Positions 8,931 through 16,502 of a DNA stretch of 18,292 nucleotides are shown here, one piece after another. A model generated the notes under the pieces. It saw nothing but the letters and a program-made list of their open reading frames with translations, was not told the origin of the DNA and ran no database searches. Source of the stretch: a virus (lineage: Duplodnaviria > Heunggongvirae > Uroviricota > Caudoviricetes). Each line of letters starts with the position of its first letter. Within the stretch, counting starts at the first letter, position 1. The position numbers and the translations under genes were made by a program. The stretch lies in the IMG/VR virus record IMGVR_UViG_2718218361_000001. One strand, written 5' to 3'.

Positions 8931-9121
8931 CACATCACCTCCCGGACAGGCAGGCGAGCAGCAAGGCAAAGCACATACTCATGGACCAGTGAAAGACGTG
9001 CATGATACTCATCGCTGGCGACAATACGCAGCATACTGATACGTGGTTTACGTTCTGCACGACGAACGGCGGCAAAAACAAATATAAATTGAGGATGTGA
9101 TGGGGCGAGGATCGTAGCCAT
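8930..9121 (-). CDS. Hypothetical small protein (63 aa), first gene of the coupled small-ORF cluster
   Basis: ATG at 9121 with GGAG 9 nt upstream. It is the C-terminal 63 codons of a 197-aa ORF whose upstream part has no RBS and a GC-rich, structured character. Confidence 0.4.
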
Positions 9122-9324
9122 AAGGGCAATCTCCAATAAGTAGCGGTTATTGCCACCACCAGAGCTGCAAATCTCATGGGTGATGGCCCGGACGGGGTTT
9201 GCAGTACCGGCCTTATTGGAAACCGGCCAGCCCGAAGGCTGCCCCGCCCGGACCACCATTATCTGACAGGAGCCACGGTGTAAGCACCACAGCCCGAAAA
9301 ATAGGTGTGCCTGAGCAACGACAT

Positions 9325-9346
9325 AAAAAAACACGCTCGACGCGTG
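9325..9346 (-). terminator. Candidate rho-independent terminator between the AlpA-like gene and the small-ORF/primase operon
   Basis: On the minus strand a CACGC-gtcga-GCGTG hairpin (9332-9346) is followed by a U7 run (A7 at 9325-9331 on plus). Stem is only 5 bp. Confidence 0.4.
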
Positions 9347-9474
9347 CTGTGTCGCCAATAAGTTACACGGGCTGCAAATCCCGGCTGCCGATTTTGCGGC
9401 AGCAGAAAAACTATAACTGGAAAGCTTGCCAGGACGCAAGCCACAAAAAAAGAGATGAGACTGCAAAGCCAGAT

Positions 9475-9735
9475 TCACGCATGGTCTCCTTGCTCGCGGG
9501 CTGCAATTCGCGCCGCCATCCATGCATTGACCTCCGACTGTACCCAGGCAACATTTTTTCCACCCAGGGAGATCTGCTGCGGGAAGGCATCACGGCTGAT
9601 AAGGTCGTAGATGGTTGAACGGGATAGCCCGCAAAGGTGCATCACTTCAGGTAATCGTATGAAGCGCTCCTGCTCAGTCGGAACCGGGAGCACCGGAGCA
9701 GCTGGTGCTGGGGTGGAAACGGAAATAGTATGCAT
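9475..9735 (-). CDS. AlpA/Vis-family phage transcriptional regulator (excisionase-like HTH), 86 aa
   Basis: ATG at 9735 with AGAGAGG 7 nt upstream. Translation [46 protein letters not shown] has the AlpA-type HTH signature. Confidence 0.8.
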
Positions 9736-10270
9736 CTCGCTACCTCTCTAATATGTTTTCAGTAGTCCGGACAATTCCATCCGGATTCAGGTAGTTCCTT
9801 ATTATGTTCATATAAGCGGCTCGCGCATGCTTTATTTAATTAGAGTGAAATATTGACTTCTCAAAAAATAAAACAGCTAAAAACCGGATAAAACGGACAA
9901 AAACAAATCATTCCCTCATGGAATATAATAAGGAGCTTCAAGAATAAAAAAGTCTATTACACCAAGCAGGATCGCCGCTCAAGTCTGTACCAGACCATAT
10001 CATTCCGGGCGTTACATCATAAGGATGAAAACAGCGCCGGAATAATAAAAGGGCCAAAAAACGTTCATAAAAAACAGTTCATCATATGTATTAATTAAGT
10101 TAATGGCTAAAAAAATTAAATTACCCGCATCCTTCCGAATTTATCCGGATGTGTTTAGTGAGCATCAGACAGATTCATTTTTATGGATATTTTCCTGAAA
10201 TGCAACCGAGTGTAGGGAGGTTAAGTGTTGAATTTTTAAACAGACATAAGACACATTTTATACTGTATAT

Positions 10271-10484
10271 TGAATAGTGTTGAATACGTGTGAATAGTGG
10301 TGAGGAATAAAAATCCAGTAATAAACTGAAATAAATATAGCGATTTATATGAAAAACAAATATAAGTTTAAATTTATCTCTGTGAACAGTCATGAACAGT
10401 AGATGACCACTTTTATTTAAACCCTACACTCCTTAACCACATGTATTTACTATTCTTTTATGAAAGTGAACAGTAGTGAATAGT
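10271..10484. repeat. ori-like iteron cluster in the AT-rich divergent region
   Basis: About seven copies of GTGAA(C/T)AGT at 10271, 10281, 10291, 10382, 10393, 10466, 10476. Their reverse complement contains TGTTCAC/TATTCAC, the same core as the repeats at 5898-5975. The two clusters are about 4.4-4.5 kb apart. Confidence 0.5.
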
Positions 10485-10549
10485 ATGTATTAAAGGAAGG
10501 GTGAAGATCAGACATGACACCTTTCTCTGGCTAGCCAGAACAAGGTCAT

Positions 10550-10567
10550 TGTTCAGTCACTGGCACA
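10550..10567 (+). promoter_or_regulatory. Candidate Ogr/Delta-dependent late promoter element (TGT-N12-ACA dyad) upstream of the Sid-like gene
   Basis: TGT(10550-10552)-tcagtcactggc-ACA(10565-10567), 73-90 nt upstream of the ATG at 10640. P2/P4 late promoters carry such a dyad near -55 (established knowledge). No clear -35; -10 is weak. Confidence 0.4.
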
Positions 10568-10639
10568 ATCCTCATCGGTAGTGCGCTTGTATGGGCACCG
10601 GCACAATTGACACAACAACAAAACACTACCGGAGCAGCC

Positions 10640-12236: not shown

Positions 12237-13049
12237 ATGACAGAACAACAATTGACGGAAAACCAGATTCAGGCCGCAACCGGACACGTAGTAACACTCC
12301 TCGCGAGGGCAAAAAAACCGCTTCAGGATGCGGATTGGCTCATGAATTTGCCTGCAAATGAAATAGCCCGCGAGACGGAAAAACTGACAAAAAGCCTTTC
12401 CTCCGACTGGCAGTCCCGAATTATCGACCTTTACCAAAAAATGCAGGCCTGGGTGGAGGCCAGACAGGCCGAAGAAGCAGCCATTGAGAACCTTCGGGCT
12501 CTGCGCCAGCATCAGACCGAAACTGAGCAGGCCAGCAAAGACAATCGGGCGCAGTTCAGGGAACTGCTTAACCAGAGCGGCGGCATCGTAACGCCGGAGA
12601 TGAAAGCTCTCCGGGCTGAGTATCTGGAACAACAGGAAACAGCCACAGAACTCGCCGGGCTGATTACTGAAAAAGAAGATCAGCTGCCGGTACTGGCTCA
12701 AGCGACCACGCGTAAAGCAAACGTCTATATAAACTGCCATCATGGCATCACTGAGGAGCGTATCGATGAGCTTTTACGAGACTTTTTTATTTTCCACGGT
12801 GCCGAATTGAGCGGCCTGCTCAGGATGAAGTACAGACAATTTGAGCGATATAGCTCAGCACATATACCGGGCATTATTGAAGGCACAAATGATGCAGATA
12901 CGCTGTATCGTGAATTTATCCTGAATCTAATGCTGAAGTGGACGAATGAAATATTACCGTTAAGATTCCGGGACGACGTGATGAGCCTGACCGGTTCAGC
13001 TCCGGTATCAGGATCGCATGACGACAGAAAAAAAAGTAAGCTGTTTTGA
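12237..13049 (+). CDS. Second Sid/Psu-family paralog, 270 aa, function unassigned
   Basis: ATG at 12237 with GGGGAGG 9 nt upstream (ORF-track start 12147 lacks an RBS). Coiled-coil-like; shares sequence blocks with the Sid-like gene at 10640. Followed by a strong terminator. Confidence 0.7.
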   Translation: MTEQQLTENQIQAATGHVVTLLARAKKPLQDADWLMNLPANEIARETEKLTKSLSSDWQSRIIDLYQKMQAWVEARQAEEAAIENLRALRQHQTETEQASKDNRAQFRELLNQSGGIVTPEMKALRAEYLEQQETATELAGLITEKEDQLPVLAQATTRKANVYINCHHGITEERIDELLRDFFIFHGAELSGLLRMKYRQFERYSSAHIPGIIEGTNDADTLYREFILNLMLKWTNEILPLRFRDDVMSLTGSAPVSGSHDDRKKSKLF

Positions 13050-13629: not shown

Positions 13630-15399
13630 TTAAAGACGCCACAGACTCTCAAGATCGAGCGTGTCACTTTGCGGTGCACTTTCTTCAGAAAGTCTATCGA
13701 TCTGCACAAGAAGCGGAGTATGAAATGCTGTTCCCGAAATTATGCATGCGCCTGGAGGAAGGGTAGGTATAAGTGTTCTGGATGCTGCATCTAATGTACT
13801 TAAGGTGTTTTTAAGAAGGTAAAGGTCGTTTTCATTTACCAAGCGATGTATGAAATAATTATGAAGTTGTGATACGATTGTTGGCGATATATCAAATGGT
13901 CGCTGGCTTGAAATAGTTACAAAATAACCAAACTTCCTACCTTCCTTTATTATCTCCTCAAATAATTCAAGTCGATAATCTTTCCAAGTCTCAGCCTCCC
14001 TCACAGAGCTTTCGGAAAGAATGTTGTGAGCTTCATCTATTATTAAATGAAAACTTTCTTTTTTGTTGTCCGAAGACTTGTGTTCTATGAAGGAACATTT
14101 CGCAATCATCATCGGAATCGTTTTTTTTATGGTTTGATTGCATTCTTTGAGAGAGATTATGGATATTGGTTTATAGCTTTGTTGAGCGCGGTTTATTTCT
14201 ATAACCTTTGCTAGAGATGAGCTCATTGCTATTATTTTGTTTATCAAAGGATATATGTGATCATATTGAACATAGTTTCTGGATACAGAATTTATTAATT
14301 GCAGTGTTGCACGTATAGCAATTTCATCAAATACACTAGTAACATGGAATTGGCTATTGTATGTTGCTTGAGTGTGTTTTAAAACTTCAGCAGTAGTGTC
14401 AAGCCAACCCGAAGGGTGTGTATATTTTTCTTGGTTTGAATGCCAAGTAAAGAGAGAGAGTTCATCTCGTATCTTTTGTTGATCGTTCTCATCGAAATAA
14501 GGCAGTAGACTTTTTAATAAATTAACGGTCTCTTTGTGAGGATTTGTTCCAAACATTATTTCAATTGTTCTTTTTAAATATGTGTTAAGATCGTCATCAT
14601 ACTTTAACTTGCTCTTTATTAAATGTGTAAGAAATGGTTTTTGTGTTTTCTCGGTTGCAGAGAATAAAACTGACAACAGTTCATCATCCCAAAATTCTTT
14701 TTCACCGAAATATATCTTATCACCATCTTTTTTTGTGCTAAGTTTTGTGGAGTGACATAGTTCTGGAAAGGAATTCTCTAATGTCCCATATTCACCATTG
14801 AAATCAATCAATACGAAATTTGACTTATCGATCAATTGTTGTTTGTTTTCAATTCTATTGAAAAGTGATTGATATATTTTTGCTAGAGTATTTGACTTTC
14901 CACTTCCTGTATTTCCAAAAATACCTATATGAGAATTAAAAACACCGTTTATGGGAATGTTTATTGGTAATTCCTCTAGCATGGATTTGCCAATGTTAAT
15001 GAGCGGAGTTTTTGTATTTTTGCTAAAACTATAGATTTCAGATATTTTATCATCCGAAATTAAATAAAGTCTATCATTTATCATTGGGAGATATTTTATT
15101 CCAGAGTAGAATTTACCCTCAAAAAAATACCCGAGAATATTTAGTTCAACGAATCTTTCATATTTTTTCTGCTCAATGTCATCAGTACGAATGTTAAAGT
15201 TCTCAACAATTTCCTCACCTATGATCTTACCTACAATGTCCTGATAACCTTTACGAACTAATACAAATTCATTTATTGATATACCACGCAATATTTTTCC
15301 ATTGTGGAAGTATGTTGATTGGAACAAGTCATGGTTTATTTTTGCTTTGACAGTGGTTCCTTTTACTTGGGTCACTTTACCTATATTCAGTTCGTCCAT
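13630..15399 (-). CDS. HerA-like (FtsK/HerA superfamily, DUF87-type) ATPase, 589 aa; second gene of the cargo pair
   Basis: ATG at 15399 with AGGAGA 9 nt upstream (ORF-track start 15408 is a TTG). Walker A GIFGNTGSGKSNT and Walker B HLIIDEAHN; N-terminal beta-rich region before the ATPase core. About 28-30% GC by hand count. Overlaps the upstream gene by 13 nt. Confidence 0.85.
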   Translation of the reverse strand: MDELNIGKVTQVKGTTVKAKINHDLFQSTYFHNGKILRGISINEFVLVRKGYQDIVGKIIGEEIVENFNIRTDDIEQKKYERFVELNILGYFFEGKFYSGIKYLPMINDRLYLISDDKISEIYSFSKNTKTPLINIGKSMLEELPINIPINGVFNSHIGIFGNTGSGKSNTLAKIYQSLFNRIENKQQLIDKSNFVLIDFNGEYGTLENSFPELCHSTKLSTKKDGDKIYFGEKEFWDDELLSVLFSATEKTQKPFLTHLIKSKLKYDDDLNTYLKRTIEIMFGTNPHKETVNLLKSLLPYFDENDQQKIRDELSLFTWHSNQEKYTHPSGWLDTTAEVLKHTQATYNSQFHVTSVFDEIAIRATLQLINSVSRNYVQYDHIYPLINKIIAMSSSLAKVIEINRAQQSYKPISIISLKECNQTIKKTIPMMIAKCSFIEHKSSDNKKESFHLIIDEAHNILSESSVREAETWKDYRLELFEEIIKEGRKFGYFVTISSQRPFDISPTIVSQLHNYFIHRLVNENDLYLLKNTLSTLDAASRTLIPTLPPGACIISGTAFHTPLLVQIDRLSEESAPQSDTLDLESLWRL

Positions 15400-16502
15400 G
15401 TTACCCAATCTCCTGTTTCTGATTTGAAAATTCTATCAATAAAAGTATCAAAAGAAATTTTATGATCAACTTCTTTAGGATAAATGAAGGTTATTCTGGG
15501 GTCATTTACTGTATTATTTATATCTTGCTTGCTTTGATTGTTGTAGCAAAAAACAAATACTTTTAGTGTTGGATTACTTAAAGATCTTTTTATTATTTCA
15601 AGAATGTGCTCGTCTTGAAATGAAAACCCAAAACAAATTAATACAGTTTGTGGTTTCTCTAATTCATAGCTTAATAATCTTAAGCTCTGATAGTAGTGTT
15701 GCTGAAATACTGTTTCTGAAAACTTTTCTTTGGTCGGATTAACTATCGCGAGTGAGTTATAGTATGATTTGAATTCTTCAAGAGAATTTTGGTCATTAGC
15801 ATTTAAATCCAAGTAATCAGCAAGATCATCGTTAGTTGTATTTAGGGTAATTACTAAATCATCTATGGTTTTATCTGTCTCTAAATTTATTAATTCAGGT
15901 GAAACGCTTGGGTAGTTGATGCTTATTGTTTCATTCTCATCTCTTTTCCATGAGACCGAACCATGCATTTTAATTAAATTGATAGTTGGTAACTCATGTT
16001 TGTACATATCATGAGTTCCTTGATGCCAAGTAGTAATATGAAAATTACTAATGTTTAATCTTCTGTTTTTAAAACCTATAGCACCATCATTGAAATGGAA
16101 TGTTTTCTTAGCTAATGCATTGTCTGCTGCTGTTTCAAAAAAAAGATCATAGTTAGTTGTGAAAATATTGGCTCGTCTTATTTGATTGGAACCTTTTTTT
16201 TCTAATAAAGTAACAAGTTCATCTAGAAAATCTGTATAGCTATTTATTGTTGAGGTGTATTTTTTGTTTTCTACACTTGGCTCAATGCAAAATGTTTTTC
16301 TAATGATTTTATTGAAATAAGAACATAAGATAAAATCCTTAACATCGATACAATCTTTATGCGTTAATAATGTCTCATAAGTGGTGTTTTCAGCAAGCCA
16401 CAGCGTTGGTATATACGATGCTGAAGCTCCTGAGCCAAATAGAAAGTTAATATTTTTATCATAAATATTTGATGCTTTGCATGGGAATTCTCTCGTGCTC
16501 AT
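15387..16502 (-). CDS. SIR2-like (sirtuin-fold, predicted NADase) protein, 371 aa; first gene of the cargo pair
   Basis: ATG at 16502 with AAGGA 8 nt upstream, only 10 bp after the integrase stop. Motifs FLFGSGASAS (glycine-rich loop), TTNYD and MHGS (His-Gly) are typical of SIR2-family domains. AT-rich like its partner. Confidence 0.85.
   Translation of the reverse strand: MSTREFPCKASNIYDKNINFLFGSGASASYIPTLWLAENTTYETLLTHKDCIDVKDFILCSYFNKIIRKTFCIEPSVENKKYTSTINSYTDFLDELVTLLEKKGSNQIRRANIFTTNYDLFFETAADNALAKKTFHFNDGAIGFKNRRLNISNFHITTWHQGTHDMYKHELPTINLIKMHGSVSWKRDENETISINYPSVSPELINLETDKTIDDLVITLNTTNDDLADYLDLNANDQNSLEEFKSYYNSLAIVNPTKEKFSETVFQQHYYQSLRLLSYELEKPQTVLICFGFSFQDEHILEIIKRSLSNPTLKVFVFCYNNQSKQDINNTVNDPRITFIYPKEVDHKISFDTFIDRIFKSETGDWVTWTN

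Follow-up and report, generated by a model that had tools for sequence, protein, structure and literature searches.

A predicted RNA immunity region of the phage P4 type in a P4-like satellite prophage inserted at ssrA

The subject of this study is the segment 9122-9474 of the viral DNA record IMGVR_UViG_2718218361_000001 (Caudoviricetes; 18,292 nucleotides (nt); this entire stretch is called the window below), which lies between an AlpA-like gene and a primase operon. Read on the minus strand, the segment is very probably the part of a P4-like satellite prophage that confers RNA-based immunity, predicted from its sequence to silence the satellite's own replication genes. The biology is already known and well described in phage P4; the locus is a correct but ordinary member, an unannotated copy of a known system with a different predicted specificity. 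An earlier note on the window had suggested that a small RNA and premature termination control the replication operon in the manner of P4, and this suggestion is supported by homology and gene order shared with P4, by covariation in 72 loci and by published equivalences; the main RNA (C4/CI, 9263-9176) and its target boxes had gone unnoticed there.

Results and Discussion

Identity of the locus

RNA families: The whole window was scanned against Rfam at gathering thresholds; three families, C4 antisense RNA, isrK and c4-a1b1, were obtained above the gathering score, all on the minus strand and inside the interval (Table 1). Phage P4 itself gives the identical three matches in the identical order (P4 CI as C4, 74.9 bits) and is ca. 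72% identical to the locus (blastn, phage collection). IsrK corresponds to seqA and C4 to the CI RNA in P4-like prophages (PMC3632133, PMC4825925); the CI RNA causes premature termination via pairing with seqA and seqC (PMC4825925). Every sequence-level hallmark of Rfam C4, isrK and c4-a1b1 and of the P4 immunity region was found in the window.

Composition and folding: The interval, previously described as GC-rich, is so moderately and no more strongly (53.8% for 9122-9474, 44.2% for the whole window), though 9176-9263 reaches 64.8%. Folding of the minus-strand RNA, which had been proposed as a check, gave z-scores of -5.4 for the C4 RNA (minimum free energy (MFE) -53.4 kcal/mol), -4.7 for the 285-nt leader and just -2.0 for the isrK part.

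Comparative sample: Loci were collected with the neighbouring DUF5375 protein as bait, not with the locus itself; 78 loci from species-representative genomes were obtained. All pairing and covariation figures are based on the 72 distinct copies of the region that could be aligned, the window counted among them; the reading-frame survey covered 73 loci and the promoter survey the 71 loci that include the promoter stretch. Single loci are cited by their numbers (L001 etc.). Intramolecular helices were paired in 98.1% of cells (29-46% with the partner slid), with compensatory changes in 10 pairs.

The C4/CI-type RNA and its targets

C4/CI-type RNA: RNAs of the C4 type are stable small RNAs, processed from a longer transcript (RNase P at the 5' end), that confer immunity. 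The MFE fold of the window copy is the Rfam model structure, apart from three extra pairs that narrow the 12-nt loop; its three helices are paired in 100% of cells, with changes on both sides in 7 of their pairs. The antisense segment b' is placed within the 12-nt loop (9222-9211), the segment a' in the junction and the 3' stem strand (9204-9194). After the basal stem stands a CC(C)A motif, which would fit a role of RNase P in its recognition.

Alternative hairpin: The 3' strand of the C4 basal stem can also pair downstream, with box a2 in the loop (Table 1); this hairpin is 99.2% paired, shows compensatory changes in 3 pairs, is mutually exclusive with the mature C4 fold and rivals the basal stem as long as the transcript is unprocessed. 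A terminator or switch element of P4 may be its counterpart, and it could join in a switch.

Side observation on the first C4 hairpin (alignment A2, columns 208-221; window 9241-9228): three fully compensated versions were seen, GCAGCC..GGCTG, GGCTTC..GAAGC and GCCGAC..GTCGG; the stem is swapped as a whole unit and the pairing is kept.

Target boxes: Two boxes, a1 and b1, lie upstream of C4 and two, a2 and b2, downstream. The upstream boxes paired with a'/b' in 93.5% of cells (69% shuffled, 37-50% slid), with changes on both sides in 12 of 19 pairs; the b1/b' helix was 99.7% paired, with double changes in 6 of 8 pairs. The downstream boxes, for which a search of complementarity between the region and the downstream leader had been recommended, paired with a'/b' in 86% of cells (65% shuffled) and covary with them. 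Between b2 and the C4 loop 11 contiguous pairs are formed, one being G-U (duplex energy: -15.1 kcal/mol with the own C4, -5.0 with P4 C4), and the GGAG of b2 stands 9 nt before the ATG at 9121. Mean duplex energies were -9.5 to -12.9 kcal/mol with own targets and -2.7 to -5.9 kcal/mol with targets of loci that carry another allele.

Candidates rejected: A copy of ATTTGCAG at 12352-12359 was considered as an extra box and dropped, being within chance expectation. The sequence TTTGCAG at ca. 9468-9462, upstream of the promoter, is present also in L003, which has a different a-allele; as there is no covariation, it was not treated as a target.

Specificity: Six a' alleles and twelve b' alleles occur in 24 combinations; the allele pair of the window, CTGCAAAC with CCAATAAG, was found in 3 of the 72 loci. 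The window differs from P4 in both boxes, and the cross duplexes are far weaker than the own ones, so that the window element and P4 are predicted to be heteroimmune. A literature search for heteroimmunity among P4-like satellites found nothing.

Side observation on L028 (41-325, Mangrovibacter yixingensis): this is the sole locus with a1/b1 boxes of another immunity type than its own C4 and a2/b2. It stands at a contig end, and its first ca. 100 nt, up to and including the t1 terminator, agree with those of L031, which is a further contig from that genome; it was therefore treated as a probable assembly chimera, the other choice being a natural recombinant with mismatched autoregulation.

The long open frame

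Annotation: An eta-like open frame of 182 aa spans the entire RNA locus, and kil forms its end. Its GTG at 9478 overlaps the alpA stop TGA 9477-9475 (GTGA 9478-9475), with AAGGAG (9491-9486) 7 nt upstream; the remark in the earlier note that no open reading frame (ORF) here has a ribosome-binding site is right inside the interval and misses this conserved frame, which crosses it. RefSeq/PGAP labels the entire 182-aa frame 'host cell division inhibitor Icd-like protein'; Pfam PF10554 Phage_ASH matches residues 37-146 of the 197-aa ORF (window 9415-9086; 101.1 bits, cut-off 26, E 6e-29), and NCBIfam NF033153 phage_ICD_like residues 146-193 of the long ORF. The C4 and isrK RNAs are unannotated in the identical E. 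coli record, and no non-coding RNA feature is given there.

Conservation of the frame: Upstream of ATG 9121 the frame is open for ca. 360 nt in 68 of 73 loci, and insertions and deletions are multiples of 3; the distance from the leader 5' end to the ATG is only 279, 282, 288, 318 or 327 nt in the 68 open-frame loci. Both remaining frames are closed by stops, within 25 and ca. 131 nt.

Coding or RNA: The coding sequence in RefSeq, the Phage_ASH match, the frame kept open and the start codon with a good ribosome-binding site on the alpA stop would all suit a genuine protein gene (Ash, Eta or the 182-aa 'Icd-like protein'), of which the region would be the 5' two-thirds, conserved for the PF10554 domain and not for RNA; this explanation is highly improbable. 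Upstream of ATG 9121 the three codon positions vary equally. Entropy at codon positions 1/2/3 was 0.68/0.66/0.64 in the upstream part of eta (9474-9122), against 0.68/0.63/1.25 in alpA and 0.36/0.32/1.01 in kil; the synonymous share (synonymous fraction of single-base codon differences) was 29% in frame (34% and 28% in the other frames), against 71% in alpA and 74% in kil. Upstream of ATG 9121, in the Phage_ASH part, no amino-acid constraint was seen: neither codon periodicity nor synonymous excess was observed. The NCBIfam Icd model spans no more than the last 48 residues, RNA helices and antisense-target pairs with changes in both partners account for the conserved columns, and the immunity factor of P4 is an RNA, eta being of importance through its translation (PMC10111431, PMC4825925). 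Protein coding by the long ORF was accordingly rejected as the cause of conservation on codon entropy and synonymous share, though the frame is kept open; only the last 63 codons behave as a protein gene.

A protein gene with homologs, named beforehand as an observation that would speak against an RNA, is formally present here (RefSeq 182 aa, Phage_ASH); since amino-acid constraint is absent upstream of 9121, the long frame does not refute the RNA reading. The term noncoding is apt in so far as there is no such constraint, and inapt in so far as an eta-like frame is kept open and is annotated as a protein with a Pfam family. A plus-strand ORF (9199-9618) gave no Pfam match and was dropped.

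Relation to P4 eta: In P4, kil makes up the end of the longer gene eta; the start of eta lies upstream of the constitutive promoter, and its translation is coupled to that of the alpA homolog (PMC10111431, citing Forti et al. 1999). Only transcripts from the upstream late promoter serve for the translation of eta, by which termination is prevented (PMC10111431). An open frame lacking a coding signature is the pattern to be expected for P4 eta and kil. The region would be a translated sequence in one transcript and a regulatory RNA in another, its conservation reflecting the RNA level and the requirement for an open frame.

Side observation on broken frames: in L080, L074, L077, L008 and L079 single-base insertions or deletions break the eta frame, the RNA elements being otherwise intact; two of the deletions affect a C4 helix or loop, and one leaves the terminator of L074 with a shorter T-run (T6 in place of T7).

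Two general statements may be put forward: (1) the specificity of P4-like satellites would be a two-box combinatorial code of 6 a-alleles and about 10-12 b-alleles, the alleles changed coherently at three sites and reassorting freely; (2) the N-terminal two-thirds of Eta (Phage_ASH) would be no protein domain but an RNA locus, its frame free of stops and frameshifts only for the transit of ribosomes. Taken jointly, these two could equally well prove right or wrong. The combinatorial allele structure and the evidence for Phage_ASH as an RNA locus may be new or under-appreciated; they go somewhat beyond the published statements found. The two-box code, if true, would define many heteroimmune groups.

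Promoter, leader and terminator

Candidate promoter: The motif TTGCNN-18-TA[TC]A[GT]T, followed by 6 nt to the first base of isrK, was present in 71 of 71 loci, and TA[TC]AGT in 70 of them. It went undetected in the default promoter scan, as its -35 hexamer agrees with the consensus at 3 of 6 positions only; generic promoter and terminator scans were uninformative alone, the conserved promoter surfacing solely via the alignment. We infer a start of the leader at ca. G9403, which is position 1 of the Rfam isrK model.

Leader: The helices of the leader module are 99.6-100% paired. The hairpin GCTGCCG-ATTTTG-CGGCAGC, reported at 9384-9403 in the earlier note, is there, and is the first stem of the isrK match; the minus-strand hairpin with U7 was likewise recovered (stem 9348-9330, T7 9331-9325), as the terminator of the isrK match.

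Terminator: The hairpin is present in the MFE fold; its five core pairs are 100% paired, with one GC to CG swap, and the T-run is conserved. The hairpin with U7 at 9348-9325, located upstream of the immunity RNA, we take to be the equivalent of P4 t1; in P4 t1 is said, in work by Briani et al. in 2000, to serve CI autoregulation and not as the main block. The generic terminator scan gave 3 sites for 2.0 expected from shuffles, which is not significant, so the case rests on the other evidence. Such a lack of enrichment, and an intrinsic-terminator-like site ca. 130 nt past the alpA stop, would also suit a mere terminator of the alpA transcript, the remainder being an incidental GC-rich spacer; this is hardly credible in view of the promoter motif between alpA and the hairpin in 71 of 71 loci, the matches to three Rfam families, the extensive covariation and an eta frame kept open through the terminator.

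Sign of regulation: Activation of the IsrK type, as in Gifsy-1, was considered as well. RNAs of the isrK type are short terminated transcripts that accumulate, bind Hfq and act in trans. The short RNA ending at 9325 would then be mainly a trans-activator that binds free C4 or the C4 segment within read-through transcripts, exposes the kil ribosome-binding site and turns the operon on. The isrK model is indeed matched at full length, boxes a1 and b1, both complementary to C4, lie on the short RNA, and in Salmonella IsrK in trans raised downstream translation >100-fold, sequestration of the C4-like STnc1160 being discussed (PMC4825925). Against this, the context is P4-like (replication operon, kil) and not an antirepressor operon, and P4 genetics give seqA a role in establishing lysogeny, that is, in repression (PMC3632133); activation as the main role is quite unlikely here. 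The roles of activator and of repression target do not exclude each other, and a positive role of the short leader RNA is a live alternative or addition to repression.

Linker: The segment between the terminator and C4 has the highest column entropy in the locus and no codon signal; it was dropped as a further structured RNA (folding z -0.46, poorly conserved). Side observation: in the P4 subgroup (L002 = P4, L013, L018, L040, L043, L057, L024) an insertion of 36-45 nt separates the t1 terminator further from C4 (alignment A2, columns 86-167); its length is always a multiple of three, and the remaining linker is highly variable.

Points that weigh against an RNA immunity region: The c4-a1b1 score is marginal (48.7 bits, gathering 46.7). 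Taken as isolated motifs, the short boxes do not reach significance within the window; the window copy of the a2 duplex is limited to 7 contiguous pairs, two of its positions never pairing. The eta frame is broken in 5 of 73 loci, so that read-through translation may be dispensable, or else these are assembly or sequencing errors. Promoter, transcription start, RNA processing and stability and termination sites are all inferred for this element. The homologous short RNA of Gifsy-1 activates downstream translation in trans (PMC4825925), and for this reason homology alone does not settle whether regulation by the short leader RNA is positive or negative.

Proposed mechanism

The steps of transcription start, processing, termination, immunity and eta translation are set out here after the work on P4, P1 and Gifsy-1; the complementarity of C4 to its targets and the covariation of both are the part seen in the sequences. 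The constitutive promoter would start the leader, which carries a1, b1 and then the terminator; part of the leader transcripts would stop at this intrinsic terminator, and the read-through RNA would be processed to the 88-nt C4/CI-type RNA, which would accumulate. Its segments a' and b' would act as antisense, upstream on a1/b1 and downstream on a2/b2. The b2 duplex would bury the GGAG ribosome-binding site of kil/icd and block this first gene, the untranslated RNA would terminate prematurely, ahead of DUF5375 and the primase, and both would be off; the satellite would be quiescent, and a second satellite that has identical boxes could not superinfect. Pairing of a1/b1 beside the upstream terminator would give a feedback on C4 synthesis. 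On transcripts that come from upstream through alpA, ribosomes would enter eta at GTG 9478 and translate across the RNA locus, and the transcript would thereby become insensitive to immunity.

Genomic context

The search of E. coli genomes gave 744 that matched; strains S21 and H14 are examples with 100% identity over window 9100-9500. An E. coli chromosome is 100% identical over a 401-nt query (window 9100-9500); the gene order in that record is ssrA, integrase, SIR2, ATPase, psu, delta/ogr, sid-like, alpA, 'Icd-like', hypothetical, DUF5375, primase-helicase, which is colinear with the P4 order of vis, cI, ORF106 and alpha. The P4-like satellite that makes up the window has the 3' end of ssrA as its insertion site; SIR2 and the HerA-type ATPase are a SIR2-HerA anti-phage defence pair, carried as satellite cargo. 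Side observation: the stretch 9740-10600, on the upstream side of alpA, is rich in AT (35% GC) and devoid of long ORFs; from its position it presumably holds the late promoter, and possibly repeats of the replication origin, as in P4.

Table 1. Features of the immunity region and its surroundings; positions are those of the window.
Feature	Position	Strand	Particulars
C4 antisense RNA, RF01695	9263-9176	-	86.1 bits (gathering 45), E 4e-16; model positions 1-87 of 87
isrK, RF01394	9403-9326	-	72.9 bits (gathering 50), E 3e-14; full-length model match
c4-a1b1, RF03163	9416-9364	-	48.7 bits (gathering 46.7); 3' end ca. 100 nt upstream of the C4 5' end
Predicted C4 / P4 CI-type immunity RNA	9263-9176	-	88 nt; 17-bp basal stem and two hairpins; P4 CI at homologous position
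a1 target box	9379-9372	-	core ATTTGCAG, loop of hairpin 2; extended pairing GGGATTTGCAG 9382-9372; complementary to C4 CTGCAAACCCC
b1 target box	9362-9355	-	CTTATTGG; complementary to C4 loop CCAATAAG
a2 target box	9175-9165	-	GAGATTTGCAG; first part of P4 seqC; covaries with a'
b2 target box	9140-9130	-	CTTATTGGAGA; includes Shine-Dalgarno GGAG 9134-9131 of kil/icd; covaries with b'
Alternative hairpin	9188-9152	-	C4 basal-stem 3' strand GCCATCACC (9188-9180) with GGTGGTGGC (9160-9152); a2 in loop
Candidate constitutive promoter (P4 PLE equivalent)	9439-9410	-	TTGCGT 9439-9434, 18-nt spacer, TATAGT 9415-9410
Leader module (P4 seqA / Rfam isrK equivalent)	9403-9326	-	hairpin 1 9403-9384, hairpin 2 9383-9368, terminator
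Intrinsic terminator	9348-9325	-	7-bp stem 9348-9330, 5-nt loop, U7 9331-9325; terminator scan
Variable linker	9325-9264	-	between terminator and C4; local hairpin ca. 9295-9270
eta-like open frame, 182 aa	9478-8930	-	GTG 9478; crosses whole RNA locus, ends as kil; L001 9523-10071
kil / Icd-like gene, 63 aa	9121-8930	-	NCBIfam phage_ICD_like E 5e-19, residues 12-59
alpA / P4 vis homolog, 86 aa	9475-9735	-	Pfam Phage_AlpA E 3e-20; strong third-position codon signal; P4 ORF88/vis at equivalent position
DUF5375 gene	8709-8386	-	P4 ORF106 homolog; Pfam match, P4 synteny
Primase-helicase gene	8422-6038	-	P4 alpha homolog; Pfam match, P4 synteny
HerA-type ATPase	13630-15408	-	PADLOC E 5e-200
SIR2 protein	15387-16502	-	PADLOC E 3e-66; adjoins integrase
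Integrase, 397 aa	16513-17706	-	immediately beside ssrA
tmRNA gene (ssrA)	18253-17891	-	Rfam, 295.8 bits

Significance

The accepted mechanism is unchanged by the present findings. The RefSeq 182-aa 'Icd-like protein' and Pfam Phage_ASH cover an RNA regulatory locus, which is an annotation issue; the box sequences predict that this satellite, with SIR2-HerA and at ssrA, is heteroimmune to P4; and typing of the a and b boxes would offer a quick sorting of P4-like satellites into immunity groups.

Comparison with known systems

P4 immunity region: The nucleotide identity given above, the order of the Rfam families and the promoter motif are common to both, as is the order vis/alpA, promoter, seqA/isrK with terminator, cI/C4, seqC, kil, DUF5375, alpha primase. 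The eta start overlaps the upstream stop codon in both (P4: ATGA on the vis stop; window: GTGA on the alpA stop). Differences: boxes CGTGAGAA and TTCACAGG in P4, a = ATTTGCAG and b = CTTATTGG in the window; a 45-nt insertion between t1 and cI in P4; eta start ATG in P4, GTG in the window; kil of 65 aa in P4, 63 aa in the window.

P1/P7 immI: The immI operon comprises the c4 antisense RNA, the a1/b1 and a2/b2 targets, icd and ant. The Rfam families C4 and c4-a1b1 are shared with the window; the window is also predicted to follow the logic of P1, in which the antisense RNA is cut from the transcript that it controls and has targets on both sides, and in both the downstream target lies over the ribosome-binding site of an Icd-family gene. 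No DNA similarity to P1 or P7 appeared among the 30 matches listed in the phage search. The operon of the window differs in holding satellite replication functions and not an antirepressor.

Gifsy-1 IsrK - orf45 (STnc1160) - AnrP: Both loci have the full-length isrK match, and in both the Rho-independent terminator precedes a C4-like RNA, processed in Gifsy-1 and predicted to be so in the window, across which an ORF is kept open (PMC4825925); in orf45, too, the nucleotide sequence is conserved while the amino-acid sequence varies (PMC4825925). In Gifsy-1 an antirepressor-like protein is encoded downstream and the short RNA trans-activates, whereas the window is of the P4 type, which points to repression of the replication operon.

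Protein profiles: PF10554 and NF033153 both match the long ORF, but only the ICD_like part behaves as coding.

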